Source: a virus. Taken from it: DNA of 42,356 bases. Below the pieces are notes generated by a model that saw only the letters and a list, made by a program, of their open reading frames with translations, was not told the origin of the DNA and searched no databases. Position numbers and translations under genes: made by a program. Positions 9,405 through 18,953 of this stretch are shown here, one piece after another. Location: positions 1 through 42,356 of the IMG/VR virus record IMGVR_UViG_3300019487_000011; one strand, 5' to 3'. How positions within the stretch are numbered: the first letter of the stretch is position 1; every line of letters begins with the position of its first letter.

Positions 9405-10208
9405 CTAGCTTAGCCTCCCGAGCGGTTCCCAGCTATTGGCCCGCAAGCAAGCGTTAAGTACCTTACGCTCGCGCCGGGACAGTTTGCGGGGGCGCTCGTT
9501 ATCGGTCAGGTAGATAACTACCGCATCGTCCTTATATGAGCCCGTGCCCGTTTCGGTCGTGCCACGGGCCCCAAGTGTACCCGGGTAACTGTCGGACAGG
9601 TCATAGTAGCGGCTTCTCCAGTTGCCCGCGCCCGTGGTCTGATACTCGGGACAGCTCATCATGTTGGAGAGCTTCAAGCCCTTGTAGTCCCACCACTGTT
9701 TCTCGTTTACACGAAGAAACTTACCCGCCGCATCCATGACAAGAAACTTATTGTAAGACCCAACGTCCTGTCCCACAATCTCCCAAAACTCGGGCTTGTT
9801 CGCGCCCGGGGCCCCGGCAAGGGCCGTCATGGCATAGAACGCGGTATCCGACATGGCATGGCGCACGTTGCCGTAGTGCTCCCCTAGTGTCTTGTCTGCA
9901 ATGACCCCGTTATGCATGAGATACCCGCCAGCCCCCGGCAACTGGAAAGGGTGCGTATTCTCGCGGGTTATGGGCCCGTGCGTTTTCCACCGAAAATGGA
10001 CCCCTAGTTCTTTGTCCGGCAGGCCCGCCAGCATCGTTTCAATGTAGCGGGCCGGGTCCGCGCAGTCTCCGGGCATGATTTTGTGAACGGCGGGGCCCTG
10101 TTTCGTCATATACATGATGCCCGCGCCGTCCGGGTTATCTTCCCATGCGGATCGGATCAGTTCGCCGGGAATCTCGACCCCGGCAGGCTTGTGGATGATT
10201 AAACACAT
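9405..10208 (-). CDS. Class-II (Ntn-type) glutamine amidotransferase-like protein
   Basis: The N-terminus MCLI supplies a Cys2 nucleophile. Further motifs are NPDGAG, HFRWKTHG, NTHPF and LMHNGVI. Its start overlaps the amidoligase stop (TAATG). Confidence 0.8.
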   Translation of the reverse strand: MCLIIHKPAGVEIPGELIRSAWEDNPDGAGIMYMTKQGPAVHKIMPGDCADPARYIETMLAGLPDKELGVHFRWKTHGPITRENTHPFQLPGAGGYLMHNGVIADKTLGEHYGNVRHAMSDTAFYAMTALAGAPGANKPEFWEIVGQDVGSYNKFLVMDAAGKFLRVNEKQWWDYKGLKLSNMMSCPEYQTTGAGNWRSRYYDLSDSYPGTLGARGTTETGTGSYKDDAVVIYLTDNERPRKLSRRERKVLNACLRANSWEPLGRLS

Positions 10209-10951
10209 TAGCCGCTAACCCCTATTTCTTGAATGAATGCGGCCAATGTCGGCCACTCGGAACGCATGGTAACATACTGAACGTAGGATTTCCAGTCCGC
10301 GACCTTTGCCGCCGACGAGACCCGCGCCCACATTACCAGAGAATGGACGACCTCCAGATTTTTCATAACCCGGTCGGGTCGGATGGTGCCCCGAAACAAC
10401 CGCAGTTCCGCAGTATTCGGGGTCAGGTTAAGGGCCTGATAGCGGCCCGCCTCCCTGTAGGACTCGGGGACCTTGCAGTTCCGCCATTGCTTCTTTTGCA
10501 TTGCCGCCCAACGGTTGTTAGACCGTTGAGCCAGTAGTTCCATGAGCCGCAAGTTTGCGGGCTCATTGATGAAAAGGTAGAGCTTCGCAAGGGTCAGGTT
10601 CGACAAAGCCCCTCGGTTTATGTGAATGTGCATACCGCATCTTTGAGTACGAGAGCCGGACATCGCAAGGGGCGCGAGGGGCGCGAGCACTGCCCGCCAG
10701 TCGAACGCCTCTTTATGCTGTTCGATTGTCATGGGGACCGTGACAATTTCCACGCCTGCGTTTAGACTTCCATCCTCTTTGCAGAAGTAGTCATTGCGCG
10801 AGGGCAGGGCCCGCAGTATCTCAGACTGCGAGCTATGGCTCCGGGGCTCAACCTCCAATTCCACACCGAAAACAAGGGCATCGGGCCGGAACGACGGGAA
10901 CGCGCAAACAGCCTCAGCCCGCAATGAGTACCTGTGAAGGGTCATGCTCAC
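10208..10951 (-). CDS. Amidoligase (Amidoligase_2 / GCS2-glutamine-synthetase-like family)
   Basis: Motifs FGVELEV, KEDGSLNAGVEIVTVP, CGMHIHI, RYQALNL and TAELRLFRGT. The GTG start overlaps the upstream stop (GTGA). Confidence 0.8.
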   Translation of the reverse strand: MSMTLHRYSLRAEAVCAFPSFRPDALVFGVELEVEPRSHSSQSEILRALPSRNDYFCKEDGSLNAGVEIVTVPMTIEQHKEAFDWRAVLAPLAPLAMSGSRTQRCGMHIHINRGALSNLTLAKLYLFINEPANLRLMELLAQRSNNRWAAMQKKQWRNCKVPESYREAGRYQALNLTPNTAELRLFRGTIRPDRVMKNLEVVHSLVMWARVSSAAKVADWKSYVQYVTMRSEWPTLAAFIQEIGVSG

Positions 10952-15403: not shown

Positions 15404-16018
15404 ATGGCCTACGCTAAGTTTACGTTCTTTGAGGCGGCTACCCAGCACGGGTTCGTCATGGCTTGCATGTCGGACAAGGTGCAGAAGTCCCGGGAGTTCC
15501 ACCAGATCATCATTGACCCCACCCGGGGTCGGGTGTTCCAGTTGTTCAAGTCCCGGGACCCGGAGCGTCCGTTCTTCGAATACGTCATCCCCGAGCGGTT
15601 GATGACCGAATCGAACTACATGTGGCGAGCCAAGGTCAAAGGGGAGCTTGAAAAGCTATGGGGCAAGATGCTACGGGAGAGGGCGAAGGCCCGCTCGACG
15701 GGACCGGAGGGCCCCTGTGGACCGGACACTACGGTTCCCTCCGAATCTCAGCCCTTGAGCCCTTCTGCATCATCGACCGATGCGCTGCCGAAGTCGGAGT
15801 CCTTGAGTTCCGAGTCCGAGGGGACGGTACCCGCTCCGCAGGGCTCCGGCCCCGGGCCATCGACCCCGGAATTCTCGCCAACCGGGCCAGCTTCTTCACT
15901 GGCCTCCGAGCTTCCATCGCAGAAGTCGGGGTCAAGGTCCCGATCCTCGTCTGGGGCATCAAAGGCAAGCTCTGGCTCCGCTACGGCGCGAGCCGGGTCC
16001 ACGCCTGCGAATGGCTAG
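15404..16018 (+). CDS. Hypothetical protein; globular N-terminal ~100 aa, then a Ser/Pro-rich tail overlapping the ParB-like frame
   Basis: 204-aa ORF. The C-terminal half is low-complexity and overlaps ORF 15658..16194 by 361 nt in another frame. Confidence 0.5.
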   Translation: MAYAKFTFFEAATQHGFVMACMSDKVQKSREFHQIIIDPTRGRVFQLFKSRDPERPFFEYVIPERLMTESNYMWRAKVKGELEKLWGKMLRERAKARSTGPEGPCGPDTTVPSESQPLSPSASSTDALPKSESLSSESEGTVPAPQGSGPGPSTPEFSPTGPASSLASELPSQKSGSRSRSSSGASKASSGSATARAGSTPANG

Positions 16019-16194
16019 GGATTGACCGGATTCCGGCCATCCTTTGCCTGTATGACGCCCACGTACCGACCGGATTCCTTTGCCTCCGGGAGCTAAAGAC
16101 CCCCGGGGAAGTCCTAGAGGCGTTTAACGCCCGGGAAGTGGGACATTTCGTCGTAGATCACGAAAAGATCGACGCGCACCGCATGGAGCCTTAA
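15658..16194 (+). CDS. ParB/Srx-like nuclease-domain protein
   Basis: LRASIAEVGVKVPILVW..GK.WLRYGASRVHACEWLGIDRIPAI fits the ParB N-terminal domain pattern (PI.V ... G..R..A ... G...IPA). The true start is uncertain. Confidence 0.6.
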   Translation: MGQDATGEGEGPLDGTGGPLWTGHYGSLRISALEPFCIIDRCAAEVGVLEFRVRGDGTRSAGLRPRAIDPGILANRASFFTGLRASIAEVGVKVPILVWGIKGKLWLRYGASRVHACEWLGIDRIPAILCLYDAHVPTGFLCLRELKTPGEVLEAFNAREVGHFVVDHEKIDAHRMEP

Positions 16195-16200
16195 GGGGGC

Positions 16201-16229
16201 TTGACAAAGCCCGGTTCGTGTAGTATACT
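16201..16229 (+). promoter_or_regulatory. Near-consensus promoter P3 (TTGACA-N17-TATACT) upstream of the tRNA array
   Basis: It lies immediately after the ParB-like stop. It is the last recognisable promoter before the tRNA array and late genes. Confidence 0.7.
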
Positions 16230-16544
16230 GGCTCCATGATCTGGTTAATCGTTCTTTGCGGCATCGTCTGGCTCGGTCTCCGAGAGGCGGTGAACCTGAC
16301 TTAGGTCCGGGTGGAGCGGCGGCCCCGGGTCCTTTGAGTTGGCCCGGCCACGGTCCGTCCTCCCCTCCCGGCTGGGTACAACCGGCCCCCGGGGCTCCCC
16401 CGTGGGGCCGCCTATTCTGGGCTTGTGCGGAAGGCCGCATGGCTCCCTTGCGCGGAAAAGAGGACCTATAGGGGCCCCTATGATCTAGCCGTACGCCGCG
16501 ACCGATATTTAAAATACGGGACCTAATAGGTCCACCAATTCTAC

Positions 16545-16615
16545 GCCACTGACGCTGCGGAGCGTCCCGGTCTCCAAAACCGACAGATGGGGTTCGACTC
16601 CCTACAGTGGTGCCA
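16545..16615 (+). tRNA. tRNA-Trp (CCA)
   Basis: Acceptor GCCACTG/CAGTGGT. Anticodon loop CTCCAAA (CCA at 16574-16576). T-arm TGGGG-TTCGACT-CCCTA. Encoded CCA. Very short D-arm with loop GCGG. Confidence 0.6.
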
Positions 16616-16657
16616 AACGTCAGCCGCTAGAGACGTACCCGAAAGGGCCTTGCAACT

Positions 16658-16742
16658 AGCGGACCTATATTGCGGTCGGTCCAGTGACCGACAGGGGCTC
16701 ATAACCCCAGTTAGCCGGGAGCGTCACCCGGGGCCGCTACCA
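16658..16742 (+). tRNA. Aberrant tRNA-like element with CAU anticodon loop (Met/fMet/Ile2-type?)
   Basis: Acceptor AGCGGAC/GGCCGCT (6 of 7 pairs). Anticodon arm GGGG-CTCATAA-CCCC (CAT at 16700-16702). T-arm CCGGG-AGCGTCA-CCCGG. A73 plus CCA. There are 10 nt instead of 2 between the acceptor and a 5-bp D-stem. Confidence 0.3.
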
Positions 16743-16749
16743 AGTTTAT

Positions 16750-16822
16750 GCGGATACGCACAAGGCGTGTCGTCCGCCTTCTAAGCGGTGCAGTAGGGGT
16801 TCGATTCCCCTTATCCGCTCCA
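16750..16822 (+). tRNA. tRNA-Arg (TCT), copy 1
   Basis: Acceptor GCGGATA/TATCCGC. Loop CTTCTAA (TCT at 16780-16782). T-arm AGGGG-TTCGATT-CCCCT. Encoded CCA. Confidence 0.7.
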
Positions 16823-16825
16823 ATT

Positions 16826-16896
16826 CTCCCGAGCGCCGAGCGCACGGACCGCTTCTAACGGTCTGGGGCTAGGTTAGATTCCTAGGCGGGAGGCCA
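16826..16896 (+). tRNA. tRNA-Arg (TCT), copy 2
   Basis: Acceptor CTCCCGA/GCGGGAG. Anticodon stem GACCG/CGGTC with loop CTTCTAA (TCT at 16854-16856). T-arm CTAGG-TTAGATT-CCTAG. Minimal D-arm. Encoded CCA. Confidence 0.55.
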
Positions 16897-16900
16897 AAAT

Positions 16901-16976
16901 CGCCGTGGCCCGAGGGACTTCGGGGCACAGTTTACGAAGCTGTAGCGCGTAGGCTCGACTCCTACCACGGTGGCCA
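16901..16976 (+). tRNA. tRNA-Arg (ACG)
   Basis: Acceptor CGCCGTG/CACGGTG. D-arm CCGA-GGGACT-TCGG. Loop TTACGAA (ACG at 16934-16936). T-arm GTAGG-CTCGACT-CCTAC. Encoded CCA. Confidence 0.7.
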
Positions 16977-16977
16977 A

Positions 16978-17052
16978 GCCCTTGTAACCTTAGTGGCAGA
17001 GGCTCTGTCTTGTAAACAGAGTGCCGGGGTTCGATTCCTCGCGGGGGCTCCA
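16978..17052 (+). tRNA. tRNA-Thr (TGT)
   Basis: Acceptor GCCCTTG/CGGGGGC. D-loop TAGTGGCAG. Anticodon stem TCTGT/ACAGA with loop CTTGTAA (TGT at 17011-17013). T-loop TTCGATT. Encoded CCA. Confidence 0.8.
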
Positions 17053-17056
17053 ATTC

Positions 17057-17131
17057 GCGTTCATAGCTGAGACGGATTAGCGAGGGTCTGAAAAGCCCTA
17101 GAGCGTGGTTCGATACCACGGGAACGCACCA
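17057..17131 (+). tRNA. tRNA-Phe (GAA)
   Basis: Acceptor GCGTTCA/GGAACGC. TA plus D-arm GCTG..AGC with GG. Loop CTGAAAA (GAA at 17090-17092). T-arm CGTGG-TTCGATA-CCACG. Encoded CCA. Confidence 0.85.
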
Positions 17132-17136
17132 ACTAC

Positions 17137-17213
17137 GCCTCCGGGCGCGTCTGGTAGACGTGAACGGACTGTCGATCCGATGTAGGAGGGTTCGATTCCC
17201 TTCGGAGGCGCCA
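17137..17213 (+). tRNA. tRNA-Asp (GTC)
   Basis: Acceptor GCCTCCG/CGGAGGC, perfect. D-loop CTGGTAG. Loop CTGTCGA (GTC at 17171-17173). T-loop TTCGATT. Encoded CCA. Confidence 0.8.
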
Positions 17214-17218
17214 AATTT

Positions 17219-17291
17219 GCCCGGTGTCCCTAGTGGGCAGGAAGCTCTTACAAAGCATCCGTGCAGGGAGCGTAACCTTGACTGGGTACCA
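17219..17291 (+). tRNA. tRNA-Val (TAC), non-canonical T-loop
   Basis: Acceptor GCCCGGT/ACTGGGT. Loop CTTACAA (TAC at 17249-17251). T-arm CAGGG-AGCGTAA-CCTTG, with no TTC. D-arm CCC-TAGT-GGG. Encoded CCA. Confidence 0.5.
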
Positions 17292-17295
17292 GACA

Positions 17296-17374
17296 GTGGT
17301 GTGGTAAGGCGATATAGCTGAGCCGTGCGGTTGTGACCCGCAGATACAGGGTGCAAGTCCCTGACCTCACCCCA
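17296..17374 (+). tRNA. tRNA-His (GTG)
   Basis: Anticodon arm TGCGG-TTGTGAC-CCGCA (GTG at 17333-17335). T-arm CAGGG-TGCAAGT-CCCTG. C73 plus CCA. Acceptor has one mismatch. The D-region is unusually long. Confidence 0.55.
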
Positions 17375-17379
17375 AATAC

Positions 17380-17454
17380 GCATCGCTGGTGTCAAAGCAG
17401 CATGACCGGCTCTTACCCGGTACGGTGTAGGTCCAAGTCCTACGCGATGCACCA
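17380..17454 (+). tRNA. tRNA-Lys (CTT)
   Basis: Acceptor GCATCGC/GCGATGC, perfect. Arm ACCGG-CTCTTAC-CCGGT (CTT at 17412-17414). T-arm GTAGG-TCCAAGT-CCTAC. D-loop lacks GG. Encoded CCA. Confidence 0.65.
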
Positions 17455-17455
17455 A

Positions 17456-17529
17456 CACTAGATGACCGAGCGGCTAGGCCGCGCCCTGCAAAGGCGCGTA
17501 CCCGGGTTCGAATCCCGGTCTAGTGTCCA
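17456..17529 (+). tRNA. tRNA-Cys (GCA)
   Basis: Acceptor CACTAGA/TCTAGTG, perfect. Arm GCGCC-CTGCAAA-GGCGC (GCA at 17488-17490). T-arm CCGGG-TTCGAAT-CCCGG. Encoded CCA. Confidence 0.85.
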
Positions 17530-17534
17530 ATACG

Positions 17535-17567
17535 GCTTCGCCGTCTCAGACGCGAAGCGTCTTTTAT
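17535..17567 (+). terminator. Terminator-like hairpin + U-tract inside the tRNA array
   Basis: GCTTCGC(C)GTC-TCA-GACGCGAAGC forms 7+3 bp with one bulge, followed by GTCTTTTAT. It lies in the only long spacer (38 nt) of the array. Confidence 0.45.
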
Positions 17568-17644
17568 GCCCCGCTGACGGAATTGGCATACGTACCTGTC
17601 TTAGAAACAGGGTTTTCCGAGTTCGACTCTCGGGTGGGGTACCA
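17568..17644 (+). tRNA. tRNA-Leu (TAG) with short variable region
   Basis: Acceptor GCCCCGC/GTGGGGT. D-loop GAATTGGCATA. Arm CCTGT-CTTAGAA-ACAGG (TAG at 17602-17604). Only a 5-nt variable region. T-arm CCGAG-TTCGACT-CTCGG. A73 plus CCA. Confidence 0.65.
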
Positions 17645-17648
17645 ATAT

Positions 17649-17722
17649 CTCTGGCTGGCCTAATGGCTGGGCACGTGCTTTGGGAGCACGGGATAGGGGT
17701 TCGATTCCTCTGCTGGAGACCA
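17649..17722 (+). tRNA. tRNA-Pro (TGG)
   Basis: Acceptor CTCTGGC/GCTGGAG. D-arm GCCT-AATGGCT-GGGC. Arm CGTGC-TTTGGGA-GCACG (TGG at 17681-17683). T-loop TTCGATT. Encoded CCA. Confidence 0.85.
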
Positions 17723-17726
17723 ATTT

Positions 17727-17798
17727 GCGGGCGCCGCAAGGCGCGACGACACGTTGCCAACGTGACCGACTGGGATTCGAGTTCCCTCGCCCGCTCCA
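17727..17798 (+). tRNA. tRNA-Gly (GCC)
   Basis: Acceptor GCGGGCG/CGCCCGC, perfect. Loop TTGCCAA (GCC at 17756-17758) on a 4-bp stem. T-arm GGGA-TTCGAGT-TCCC. Reduced D-arm. Encoded CCA. Confidence 0.6.
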
Positions 17799-17802
17799 AT
17801 TT

Positions 17803-17879
17803 GCACCTATCGTCTACGTTAGCTAGGATGCTGGGCTTTCACTCCGGCTAACAGGGGGCAGCACCCTGTAGGTGTACCA
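17803..17879 (+). tRNA. tRNA-Glu (TTC), non-canonical T-loop
   Basis: Acceptor GCACCTA/TAGGTGT. Loop CTTTCAC (TTC at 17838-17840). T-arm CAGGG-GGCAGCA-CCCTG. D-loop lacks GG. Encoded CCA. Confidence 0.55.
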
Positions 17880-17884
17880 AGATC

Positions 17885-17968
17885 GTAGTGCTAGACCGCT
17901 ATGGAGACGGGACCGGCTGTAACCCGGTCGCTTCGGCCCTCTAGGTTCGATTCCTAGGCACTGCACCA
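17885..17968 (+). tRNA. tRNA-Tyr (GTA), class II
   Basis: Acceptor GTAGTGC/GCACTGC. Arm ACCGG-CTGTAAC-CCGGT (GTA at 17919-17921). 12-nt variable arm with a GC-TTCG-GC hairpin. T-arm CTAGG-TTCGATT-CCTAG. Encoded CCA. Confidence 0.85.
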
Positions 17969-17973
17969 ACTAT

Positions 17974-18051
17974 TCCGCTCTAGCTCTCAAGGTGAGAGCA
18001 ACTGGCTGTTAACCAGTATGGAGGGTGGTTCGATTCCACCGGGCGGAGCCA
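17974..18051 (+). tRNA. tRNA-Asn (GTT)
   Basis: Acceptor TCCGCTC/GGGCGGA. TA plus D-arm GCTC..GAGC with GG. Arm ACTGG-CTGTTAA-CCAGT (GTT at 18008-18010). T-arm GGTGG-TTCGATT-CCACC. Encoded CCA. Confidence 0.85.
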
Positions 18052-18055
18052 ATTC

Positions 18056-18133
18056 CGGGGTCTGAAGGGAACAGGCAGACCTACTTGGCTCAAACCCAAG
18101 TGTTTCCGGGTTCGACTCCCGGGGCCCCGACCA
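18056..18133 (+). tRNA. tRNA-Leu (CAA) with short variable region
   Basis: Acceptor CGGGGTC/GGCCCCG. Arm CTTGG-CTCAAAC-CCAAG (CAA at 18091-18093). 5-nt variable region. T-arm CCGGG-TTCGACT-CCCGG. A73 plus CCA. Confidence 0.6.
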
Positions 18134-18211
18134 TTAAGCTGTGGGTTGCTGGTATCCCACTCGCGCTCTGAACGCGGGACCACGTAGGTTCAAATCCTAC
18201 GCTTACCGCCA
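18133..18211 (+). tRNA. tRNA-Gln (CTG)
   Basis: D-arm TGGG-TTGCTGGTAT-CCCA. Arm TCGCG-CTCTGAA-CGCGG (CTG at 18168-18170). T-arm GTAGG-TTCAAAT-CCTAC. Encoded CCA. Acceptor pairs 1-72 and 2-71 are mismatched, and the 5' end abuts or overlaps the previous CCA. Confidence 0.7.
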
Positions 18212-18216
18212 ATTCT

Positions 18217-18308
18217 GGAAGAGCAAGCCAACTGGCGATGGCACCCGTCTTGAAAACGGACGAGCCCTAACACGGCCTTGAAGGTTCAACTCCATTCCTC
18301 TTCCGCCA
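18217..18308 (+). tRNA. tRNA-Ser (TGA), class II
   Basis: Acceptor GGAAGAG/CTCTTCC, perfect. D-arm GCC..GGC with GG. Loop CTTGAAA (TGA at 18251-18253). Long variable arm of about 20 nt. T-loop TTCAACT. Encoded CCA. Confidence 0.8.
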
Positions 18309-18314
18309 AACAAT

Positions 18315-18388
18315 GCCCGAGTCGTCCAATGACAGGACAAGCGGCCGATTACCGCTGAATGTGGGTTTGATTCCTACCTTGGGTACCA
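18315..18388 (+). tRNA. tRNA-Ile (GAT) with unusual anticodon loop
   Basis: Acceptor GCCCGAG/CTTGGGT. D-arm GTCC-AATGACA-GGAC. Arm AGCGG-CCGATTA-CCGCT (GAT at 18347-18349), with C at position 33 and T at 37. T-arm GTGGG-TTTGATT-CCTAC. Encoded CCA. Confidence 0.6.
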
Positions 18389-18392
18389 ATTT

Positions 18393-18791
18393 ATGACGGA
18401 CCACGAAGAGAAGCCTGTAATCAAGCGCGAAGGTGGACGCTTCGTCAAGGGCCAGAGCGGCAACCCTGCCGGTCGGGCCAAGGGCACGAAGAACAAGATC
18501 ACCCTCGCACGGTTGCTGCTGGAAGAGCAGCTTCGGGACGCTCTGGCTAAGAGCGGCCCTAAGCTCATGCAGCAGGCAATCAAGCAAGCCCTCAAGGGCA
18601 ATGACCGCATCATGCGGGTGTTGCTCGACAAGATGCTGACGACCCCGCGTGACGCGCAGGAGTCGGATAACCAAGACCGCGAAATTAACGTCGTGGTCCA
18701 GAATCTGGTCACCGACCAGTCGGCCAAGCCGAAGCTGATCGAGGGCGAGAAATCGGTTCGTGTTCCCGTAACCATCCCCATCAAGGACTAA
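18393..18791 (+). CDS. DUF5681-type protein (small terminase subunit candidate)
   Basis: 132 aa. The FVKGQSGNPAGRAKGTKN motif is typical of DUF5681 proteins found upstream of large terminases. The ATG lies 4 nt after the last tRNA CCA. Confidence 0.6.
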   Translation: MTDHEEKPVIKREGGRFVKGQSGNPAGRAKGTKNKITLARLLLEEQLRDALAKSGPKLMQQAIKQALKGNDRIMRVLLDKMLTTPRDAQESDNQDREINVVVQNLVTDQSAKPKLIEGEKSVRVPVTIPIKD

Positions 18792-18797
18792 CCCCCC

Positions 18798-18953
18798 ATG
18801 CCTTCAATGAAAGAGTACCAGAAGCCGGGCGGCGAAGATCAGCCTACAGTAACGTCGAAGTCTTCTGGCCTCGACTACGTGAAGGCCGCTCTGGAGCCCG
18901 CTCAGGAGAAGTCGGTTCAGCGCCGCGAAGACGCGACGAAGAACGACGACTAA
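18798..18953 (+). CDS. Hypothetical small protein (51 aa)
   Basis: This ORF is below the track cutoff, fills the gap between flanking genes, and is on the same strand. Confidence 0.4.
   Translation: MPSMKEYQKPGGEDQPTVTSKSSGLDYVKAALEPAQEKSVQRREDATKNDD

Follow-up and report, generated by a model that had tools for sequence, protein, structure and literature searches.

The contacts G18-Psi55 (Psi, pseudouridine), G19-C56 and T54-A58 are taught as near-universal in transfer RNA (tRNA), and genes that break these rules raise the question of whether they encode working tRNAs or are decaying. This question is posed by a dense array of 22 tRNA genes at 16545-18388 on the + strand of IMG/VR virus record IMGVR_UViG_3300019487_000011, which was analysed over its full length of 42,356 nucleotides (nt; hereafter the window). 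An earlier reading of these letters (the sequence-only reading) had described several members as divergent but functional, with a remodelled elbow rather than random decay. We found this description to be well supported by comparative sequence evidence, and the reason it proposed for the divergence to be plausible but speculative. The rule-breaking members are probably working tRNAs with a rebuilt elbow and not decayed genes, because the comparative data show selection keeping both the cloverleaf and the contact between D-loop and T-loop. The elbow contacts co-vary: in gapless comparisons of orthologs, the D- and T-loops change jointly.

The genes were located with low-threshold ARAGORN and a geometric parser that required only an encoded CCA and paired acceptor, anticodon and T stems. 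The first gene, tRNA-Trp, starts at 16545, so the array start of 16826 given earlier was too narrow. All seven T-loops that the sequence-only reading quoted as lacking TTC were located: AGCGTAA in Val (17269-17275), GGCAGCA in Glu (17857-17863), AGCGTCA in the gene with anticodon CAU (16720-16726), TGCAAGT in His (17352-17358), TCCAAGT in Lys (17432-17438), TTAGATT in the second Arg-UCU copy (16874-16880), and CTCGACT in Arg-ACG (16954-16960). An eighth, absent from that reading, is TTTGATT in Ile (18366-18372), which has U56. D-loops without GG were confirmed in Arg copy 2, Val, Lys, Glu, and Ile. Trp had been listed with them, but its D-loop is short and does contain GG, while His and CAU had been overlooked. 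The D-loops of Gly and Arg copy 1 are 5 nt long and contain GG. The reported co-occurrence of the two losses held, as GG is absent with seven of the eight non-TTC T-loops and present with all 14 TTC T-loops. The stems are well paired, as had been stated, with 6-7 of 7 pairs in the acceptor stem (5 of 7 in Gln), 4-5 of 5 in the anticodon stem and, where resolved, 4-5 of 5 in the T stem (Ser has one T-stem mismatch), and CCA is encoded at the 3' end of all 22 genes. U33 and a purine at 37 were found in 21 of 22 genes, the exception being Ile-GAU.

Orthologs were sought in phages related by TerL. Closer TerL relatives were found by protein search in ENA and Logan assemblies, and four of these, L028, L030, L031, and L035 (TerL identity to the window 85%, 81%, 79%, and 78%, respectively), contain arrays at the equivalent position, directly upstream of a DUF5681 gene that is itself upstream of TerL. 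The L030 array is collinear with that of the window. The array was thereby seen in several independent assemblies and its single genes were comparable as orthologs. INPHARED contained no close phage, and only Leu-UAG matched there (86% identity, to tRNA-Leu(CAA) of Mesorhizobium phage Cp1R7A-A1). The IMG/VR TerL relatives L001-L025 (≤75% identity) had no tRNAs and an equivalent interval of about 700 nt, and the further TerL relatives L162-L169 had no arrays or too little upstream sequence.

Joint changes were observed in four isotypes. In Phe, the window combines D-loop GACGGA with T-loop TTCGATA, while three relatives combine GATAGA or GACAGA with TGCGATA, a change from G18:U55 to A18:G55. 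The same change separates Pro of L028 (CATTGGCA with TTCGATT) from Pro of L031 (CAACAGCA with GGCAGCA). For Ile, the canonical form was found in four relatives (AATGGCA or AACGGCA, and AATGGCTA in L031, with T-loop TTCGAxT) and the A18:G55 form in L030 (AACAGCA with TGCAAAT). Position pair 19:56 was also found to change. Ile of L035 has AATGGCA with TTCGATT and Ile of the window AATGACA with TTTGATT, so that G19-C56 is replaced by A19-U56; of the five Ile genes, four have G-C at 19:56 and that of the window has A-U. In Cys, the window has GAGCGGCTA with TTCGAAT, and L030 and L031 have GAGCGTCTA with TTAGAAT or TTAGACT, a change from G19-C56 to U19-A56. Across the 75 tRNAs of the five arrays, GG occurred with U55C56 in 50 of 50 cases and AG without GG occurred with G55C56 in 16 of 16 (Fisher's test, 1e-15, the cases being not independent and representing about 10 tRNA families). 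The covariation of D- and T-loop positions that the sequence-only reading had suggested looking for in related phages is thus present in these arrays, where 54:58 co-varies as well as 18:55 and 19:56.

We extended the comparison to IMG/VR loci retrieved by two odd T-arm patterns. About half of the matches were well-formed tRNAs of many isotypes, often in arrays. A strict scanner, which demanded complete pairing of the acceptor (7/7), T (5/5), and anticodon (5/5) stems as well as U33, R37, and an encoded CCA, identified 683 units in these loci, whereas shuffled sequence gave none. After deduplication, 611 units remained under a stricter D-stem rule, and 633 in a tally of 54:58 and the variable region. 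Among the 611, GG accompanied U55C56 in 385 of 392 units, and 154 of the 179 units with G55C56 lacked it (p = 5e-102); AG is also present in most of the 25 units that have both G55C56 and GG. C55 loops in the survey keep GG. Of 184 G55 loops, 171 have T:A (76), G:G (73), or A:T (22) at 54:58, and 181 keep G53-C61; position 57 is always a purine, and 39 anticodons are represented. U56 was found with GA in the D-loop in 12 of 13 units, G56 with GC in 4 of 5, and A56 with GT in 5 of 9, and therefore all four Watson-Crick combinations occur at 19:56. The elbow is read chiefly as a flat stacking surface (PMC4810234), with which a Watson-Crick 19:56 pair of any identity is in keeping.

The window loops AGCGTAA, AGCGTCA, GGCAGCA, TGCAAGT, and TTTGATT all match the survey pattern. 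GGCAGCA, the Glu T-loop, was also found in Pro of L031 and in at least 36 tRNAs of IMG/VR, and TGCAAGT in many IMG/VR His tRNAs. In some loci nearly every gene is of the alternative type: all 16 tRNAs of IMG/VR L290 (826-4037) and 15 of the 16 of L209 (2101-5317) combine an N-G-C T-loop with an AG D-loop, so that U55 is all but missing there. Phe of L290 is homologous to the Phe family compared above. In GTDB (one genome per species), few of the first 120 matches listed were true hits, and these were arrays on contigs of Verrucomicrobiaceae metagenome-assembled genomes (MAGs) and two other loci. These alternative-elbow arrays on bacterial-genome contigs are L367, L372, L410, and L429 (Verrucomicrobiaceae/Prosthecobacter MAGs) and L452 and L453, and one of the contigs is 3.4 Mb long. 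Another kind of loop pairing was seen in Lys-UUU of L028 (719-796) and L031 (1346-1429), which has an 8-nt T-loop, YTGGCAWY, and the D-loop AACGCCTYA. The D-loop GCC is complementary to the T-loop GGC, which suggests a loop-loop contact of three base pairs.

One alternative is that the atypical members are decaying pseudogenes in an array that was acquired as a block and of which only the canonical members are used. Pseudogenes are expected to lose pairing and conservation, whereas in these orthologs compensatory changes keep the pairing and the odd loops are conserved. For Ile-GAU (five genes), 97.5% of cells were paired and 13 of 24 pairs had changed on both sides, and for Phe (four genes) 91.7% were paired and 9 of 24 pairs were doubly changed. 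In each case 0 of 500 shuffles reached this value, and slid controls gave at most 50% paired for Ile-GAU and at most 44% for Phe. Val, compared with a canonical Val at the same position of the L030 array, differs by seven double compensatory changes and one broken pair. His and its L030 ortholog, which have an identical elbow, also differ by seven double changes and one broken pair. The other comparisons gave five double changes and no broken pair for Glu against its positional ortholog, four double compensatory changes and one broken pair for Trp against a 71-nt L030 ortholog, and 2-3 double changes with 0-1 broken pairs for Gly against positional orthologs. Pairing has therefore survived many double substitutions, and the loops vary only within a narrow set of forms. 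The odd T-loops of His (TGCAAGT) and Lys (TCCAAGT) are shared by the window and L030, four phages (L028, L030, L031, and the window) conserve the 72-nt Gly, and two the 71-nt Trp; these are odd forms maintained among phages whose TerL is about 80% identical to that of the window. Together with the covariation of tertiary positions, the existence of whole arrays with 15 or 16 of 16 non-canonical members, and the fact that seven amino acids (Met, Val, His, Lys, Glu, Ile, and Gly) are served in the array by an odd gene alone, this makes decay a very unlikely explanation. Two further pattern searches returned no tRNA of the kind sought: a search of IMG/VR with the Ile anticodon-arm pattern gave five chance matches and no tRNA, and a metagenome scan with a loose Gly pattern gave, among the matches listed, GC-rich chance matches and no Gly tRNA.

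Three of the rule-breaking members, CAU, Val, and Arg copy 2, share a compact design, in which the acceptor stem is followed without a gap by a 4-base-pair (bp) D-stem with a loop of 3-5 nt (CAGT, CTAGT, and CGA, respectively), one linker base, a 7-bp anticodon stem, a 3-nt variable region, and a non-TTC T-loop. The CAU gene (16671-16742, 72 nt) has the D-stem GGTC/GACC and GGG/CCC adjoining the anticodon loop; Arg copy 2 (UCU, 16826-16896, 71 nt) has the D-stem GCGC/GCGC from position 8 and A56 in its T-loop; Val (UAC, 17219-17291, 73 nt) has the D-stem GTCC/GGGC from position 8, CTAGT as the D-loop of the favoured fold, and one A:A mismatch in its anticodon stem. A scanner for this shape found 19 units in fetched loci, including L030 Arg-ACG, and 15 units in later loci compared with none in five shuffle rounds. 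A compact homolog of Arg copy 2 with the identical CGA D-loop is present in IMG/VR locus L250, and a compact CAU family was found in IMG/VR. In a gapless alignment of six compact CAU tRNAs from different contigs, 20 of 26 pairs were doubly changed, with covariation in 4/4 D-stem and 7/7 anticodon-stem pairs; since the members were picked for fit to the fold, the test lies in the excess over shuffles and in the variety of pair types. The covariation directly supports the compact fold for the CAU family, and for that family only. Marks of the bacterial initiator tRNA-fMet include a mismatch at 1:72 and a run of three G:C pairs that closes the anticodon stem. The CAU gene has a 1:72 mismatch (U1:U72 rather than C:A), which is also present in several compact CAU homologs, and three G:C pairs (G29-31:C39-41) by the anticodon loop. 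It is initiator-like and may be an initiator, with elongator Met or Ile2 as alternatives.

The compact design has a known counterpart. In the pyrrolysine tRNA, tRNAPyl, 0-1 base separates the acceptor stem from the D stem, the D-loop measures 3-5 nt, the anticodon stem is lengthened, the variable loop has 3 nt, and T-Psi-C is altered, with C56A among the changes (PMC11764691). Like tRNAPyl and the animal mitochondrial tRNASer(UCN) (PMC11764691), CAU, Val, and Arg copy 2 have a compact core without G18G19 and without T-Psi-C, and Arg copy 2 shares C56A with tRNAPyl. However, their anticodons are CAU, UAC, and UCU and not CUA, the anticodon stem is 7 bp and not 6, there is no sequence relatedness, and PylRS was not found among the window open reading frames (ORFs) screened, which were not all ORFs. 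The likeness to tRNAPyl is one of architecture only and not of membership.

Several points weigh against regarding every odd member as a working tRNA. The relative closest by TerL, L027 (91% identity), has no array at all; alignment of L027 858-1261 with window 16190-18408 showed that the flanking genes and part of the leader are kept. The array is therefore dispensable in this lineage, an absence that the pseudogene explanation would accommodate. As relatives at 78-85% have the array and L027 does not, the array is a variable cassette that is gained or lost as a block. Six members (CAU, Arg copy 2, Arg-ACG, Val, Gly, and Glu) score below threshold or have no Rfam score, which would likewise fit decay, as would the two mismatches atop the Gln acceptor stem and the labels "tRNA-Pseudo" or "tRNA-OTHER" given to similar genes in some deposited phage records. 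Orthologs lend no support to the Gln acceptor mismatches, to C54 of Arg-ACG, to the A7:G66 mismatch of Arg copy 2, or to A53-U61 and U49:U65 of Gly. Such window-specific oddities could be mildly deleterious or signs of dying copies, and individual defects such as the Gln mismatches, the C54 of Arg-ACG, and the A53-U61 of Gly may be harmful. On the technical side, positions 18 and 19 in variable D-loops were assigned by motif except in the gapless ortholog comparisons, the survey counts measure association and not prevalence because the loci were chosen for an odd T-arm, and the paired-cell percentage of the compact CAU alignment (A3) is no independent test.

We also considered that the odd members might not take part in translation and might instead be tRNA-shaped RNAs that act as decoys for host nucleases or modification enzymes, or as punctuation for precursor processing. 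A role of phage tRNAs against tRNA-targeting defences is known (PMC10264068, PMC11555353, PMC11464382), and an encoded CCA and intact acceptor stems would suit a decoy too. From a decoy, however, one would expect imitation of the canonical elbow and not a change to it. U33 and R37 are kept in the anticodon loops of nearly all odd members, the anticodons complete the amino-acid set without redundancy, and the discriminators fit the isotypes (C73 with G-1 in His; A73 in Leu, Val, and Ile; G73 in Gln, Arg, and Trp). We regard this explanation as extremely improbable.

If the odd members are working tRNAs with a rebuilt elbow, the rebuilding itself could be either neutral or adaptive, and both neutral compensatory drift and an adaptive origin fit the data. 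Under drift, constraint would be relaxed by brief action and high copy, and the tRNAs would wander near-neutrally, by compensatory change, among foldable elbows. Covariation reflects selection for pairing and not for a given variant, close relatives differ in having the canonical or the alternative version of the same tRNA (Phe, Cys, Pro, Ile, and Val), and many variants stand side by side in one array, all of which make functional but non-adaptive change a real possibility, though we would put it at somewhat less than an even chance. What argues against an undirected walk is suggestive: GGCAGCA, TGCAAGT, and AGCGTTA recur across isotypes and unrelated contigs, and entirely converted arrays look more like a preferred state or a lineage-level pressure. 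On this recurrence and these fully converted arrays, we lean slightly towards a preferred alternative state. The stronger proposal, that rebuilt elbow, compact cores, C33, and short-arm Leu together form a widespread and selected "phage dialect" of tRNA structure, seems doubtful at present. If it were true, the dialect would set phage tRNAs apart from host tRNAs and let them escape host tRNA nucleases that read the elbow or loops and modification-dependent surveillance, or alternatively spare them when the phage destroys host tRNAs, while they still fit RNase P, synthetases, EF-Tu, and the ribosome.

Where U54, U55, and G18 are replaced, the modifications m5U54, Psi55, and Gm18 lose their sites (PMC7912444), and one may speculate that the elbow was rebuilt to fold without these modifications. 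Escape from host tRNA nucleases or from modification-dependent recognition, the reason offered by the sequence-only reading, is plausible but speculative; it agrees with work on anticodon-loop changes in phage tRNAs, which were proposed to evade host anticodon nucleases (PMC10264068). Like those tRNAs, the window Ile-GAU has a conserved non-standard anticodon loop (C33, U37), whereas the window deviations otherwise lie mostly in elbow and architecture, with no known nuclease target.

The two Leu genes break a different rule. As had been reported, both Leu-UAG (17568-17644, 77 nt, 49.3 bits with the Rfam tRNA model) and Leu-CAA (18056-18133, 78 nt, 37.4 bits) have 5-nt variable regions (GTTTT and TGTTT), without the long arm of class II tRNA-Leu, while Tyr and Ser retain long arms. 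The long arm of tRNA-Leu is found in every organism and organelle apart from animal mitochondria, and leucylation in E. coli depends on A73 together with the D/T tertiary pairs and does not need this arm (PMC9976931). Both window genes have A73, G18G19, and TTCGACT, which are the E. coli LeuRS determinants by sequence, and phage short-arm Leu tRNAs presumably use bacterial LeuRS. A short variable region was found in 35 of 78 Leu-anticodon units of the survey, all 35 with A73, and also in the isolated Mesorhizobium phage Cp1R7A-A1. The short-arm Leu-CAA is conserved in L028, L030, L031, and the window, and the short-arm Leu-UAG of the window replaces an 84-nt long-arm Leu-UAG at the same position in L030 and L031. 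The 86% identity of this Leu-UAG to Cp1R7A-A1 Leu-CAA suggests a recent cassette import. The phage genes resemble the class I tRNA-Leu of animal mitochondria in the 4-5-nt variable region and A73, but unlike it they keep a canonical G18G19/T-Psi-C elbow and the D-arm. In Cp1R7A-A1 (L026, 6854-7359), the variable arms of Lys and Asn, two tRNAs of 88 nt, are long, and therefore variable-arm class appears to have been exchanged both ways in phage tRNAs; the Val and Glu tRNAs of this phage have the T-loop ATCGAAA (A54). Two 93-nt tRNAs with anticodon UAU, a long variable arm, A73, and the T-loop TGCGAGT, at 145-237 in L030 and 709-801 in L031, combine a class II body with an Ile (AUA) anticodon.

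The anticodon loop of Ile-GAU (18315-18388) reads CCGATTA at 18345-18351, with C33 and U37, as the sequence-only reading had noted. This loop is invariant in five phages. Of the 508 class-I phage tRNAs surveyed, 40 (8%) have C33, with CCGATAA and CCGATTA recurring among Ile-GAU genes, and Cp1R7A-A1 Ile also has C33.

Standard software recovered the array incompletely. ARAGORN at default settings called 15 of the 22 genes, between 16750 and 18388. With the Rfam tRNA model RF00005 (gathering score 29 bits), 12 genes were at or above threshold, ten in a gathering-threshold scan plus Lys and His in E-value mode. CAU, Arg copy 2, Val, and Gly had no match to this model at E ≤ 10, even on short segments. 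Asp, Tyr, and Gln were listed under the selenocysteine (Sec) model only, below its threshold, and Ser passed the Sec model only. Canonical loops might have been recovered through other alignments, but obtaining the covariance scores, with Infernal on short segments and low-threshold ARAGORN, gave none; for His and Glu, Infernal aligned AG under G18G19, with A at 18. For phage annotation, this means that default ARAGORN misses 7 of 22 genes here and the Rfam threshold fails 6, and as standard finders miss or flag such genes, phage tRNA repertoires are undercounted.

We then described the remaining genes in array order, which is Trp, CAU, two Arg-UCU, Arg-ACG, Thr, Phe, Asp, Val, His, Lys-CUU, Cys, Leu-UAG, Pro, Gly, Glu, Tyr, Asn, Leu-CAA, Gln-CUG, Ser-UGA, and Ile-GAU. 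All lie on the + strand, and the bit scores are those of the Rfam tRNA model unless stated. Trp(CCA) (16545-16615, 71 nt, 32.2 bits) has a miniature D-arm with the stem from position 8, a D-loop of 4-6 nt with GG, and the canonical T-loop TTCGACT. Arg-UCU copy 1 (16750-16822, 73 nt, 34.7 bits) has the D-loop AAGGC and a canonical T-loop. Arg-ACG (16901-16976, 76 nt) matched the Sec model only, at 21.3 bits; C54 in its T-loop is accompanied by the D-loop GGGACT, in which GG is kept. Thr-UGU (16978-17052, 49.0 bits) is canonical and 95% identical to its L030 ortholog. Phe-GAA (17057-17131) has a canonical elbow in the window, as does Asp-GUC (17137-17213). His-GUG (17298-17374, 32.0 bits) encodes G-1 and C73, and its D-loop, GATATAGCTGA, has AG in place of GG. 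Lys-CUU (17380-17454, 44.9 bits) has the D-loop CAAAGCA and C55. Cys-GCA (17456-17529) and Pro-UGG (17649-17722) are canonical in the window, and the L030 ortholog of Pro has the T-loop TTAGAGT.

Gly-GCC (17727-17798, 72 nt) has a miniature D-arm with the 5-nt loop AAGGC, and in its T stem A53-U61 replaces G53-C61 and U49:U65 is a mismatch. In Glu-UUC (17803-17879, 23.5 bits) the D-loop is ACGTTAGCTA, with AG but no GG. Tyr-GUA (17885-17968) has a 12-nt variable region, and Asn-GUU (17974-18051, 50.3 bits) is canonical. Gln-CUG (18133-18211) has the two mismatches atop its acceptor stem that the sequence-only reading had reported, A1:C72 and U2:C71. Its first base is the last A of the CCA of the preceding Leu-CAA, and it is the positional ortholog of L030 Gln(UUG), in which the acceptor stem is fully paired. 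Ser-UGA (18217-18308) has a long variable arm and is near-identical in L028, L030, and L035. Its top model was Sec (49.2 bits), but a selenocysteine tRNA was rejected, since the UGA anticodon reads UCN and the long arm explains the Sec score.

The 22 genes cover 19 amino acids, all but Ala, in 1,844 nt (about 12 per kb). A tRNA array unit has been defined by at least 20 tRNA genes at a density of at least 2 per kb (PMC4758250), and the array belongs to this category. Spacers between genes are 0-7 nt, except for 38 nt after Cys and 55 nt after Trp. The 38-nt spacer (17530-17567, + strand) contains two hairpins and a T run and is the only long spacer that separates two tRNA genes. The 55-nt gap contains, at 16618-16667, a 7-bp stem CCGCTAG/CTAGCGG that encloses a ccc-gaaa-ggg hairpin and a CTTGCAA stretch resembling an Ala-UGC anticodon loop, followed by ACCT instead of ACCA. 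This element was rejected as a tRNA-Ala, having neither cloverleaf nor CCA; it could be a tRNA-Ala remnant, because Ala is the sole amino acid without an array tRNA. Just 5' of the first tRNA, at 16519-16540, a minihelix-like hairpin GGACC-TAATA-GGTCC is followed by ACCA, and on the minus strand it also has a terminator-like score.

Upstream of the array, a sigma-70-type promoter-like site (16201-16229, + strand; TTGACA-17 nt-TATACT, 11/12 consensus matches) was the sole such site within 15900-18900 and is the putative array promoter. The array would probably be transcribed from it as one precursor, which would be cut into tRNAs already bearing CCA; these would then be charged by host synthetases and used for translation of phage messenger RNAs. 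In the model that we propose, the elbow contacts would have been swapped in coordination, from G18:U55 to A18:G55 and from G19-C56 to A-U, U-A, or C-G, with the intraloop T54:A58 becoming A:T or G:G and with G53-C61 and purine 57 retained, and CAU, Val, and Arg copy 2 would adopt the more compact cloverleaf.

In several respects the array resembles the tRNA clusters of T4, T5, and mycobacteriophages (PMC4758250, PMC5966550, PMC6409571), which are likewise dense same-strand arrays of at least 20 genes that cover nearly all amino acids and occur patchily among close relatives. It differs from them in the size of the genome, only about 42 kb, in spacers of 0-7 nt, in CCA encoded by every gene, in the lack of a canonical elbow in a third of the members, and in the lack of a long arm in both Leu. 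The related arrays contain homing-endonuclease-like ORFs, as in the T4 tRNA region (PMC2330249): small ORFs with HNH-endonuclease-type Cys/His motifs lie between tRNA genes at 1682-2123 in L030 and at 166-477 and 1520-1896 in L031. These HNH-like ORFs, none of which is present in the window, could drive cassette exchange.

The T-loop motif outside tRNA, in ribosomal RNA, RNase P, and riboswitches, has five nucleotides and a 1:5 trans Watson-Crick/Hoogsteen closing pair; a base from elsewhere intercalates, and position 2 is not restricted to U. Unlike in those RNAs, the variants TGCRA, GGCRG, and AGCRT are found here within tRNAs, in which T-Psi-C counts as nearly invariant (PMC7912444). Published phage tRNA work concerns anticodon-loop changes and tRNA supply (PMC10264068, PMC11555353, PMC11464382). 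We found no description of elbow variants, A18/G55, or short-arm Leu in phages in the literature searched, which does not prove absence. The array and the hundreds of viral tRNAs amount to a natural mutagenesis of the tRNA elbow, with co-varying alternatives at near-universal positions. As these tRNAs presumably use bacterial machinery, the variants show which replacements keep the fold and are candidates for revealing the real needs of RNase P, TruB, and TrmA, and likewise of the CCA-adding enzyme, EF-Tu, and the ribosome. In addition, they could be a source of new orthogonal tRNA scaffolds and, if adaptive, would point to defence and counter-defence acting on the tRNA body instead of the anticodon.

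The window, a phage genome of about 42 kb, has genes for a family-A DNA polymerase, a DnaB-like helicase, TerL, a portal protein, and a major capsid protein, and the array is flanked on one side by the early region and on the other by the DUF5681-TerL structural operon. No tRNA-related enzyme was found among the 20 window ORFs that were screened, which are not all of its ORFs. Unrelated to the tRNA question, adjoining genes at 9405-10951 on the minus strand gave an Amidoligase_2 match above the Pfam cut-off and a weak glutamine-amidotransferase match below it.

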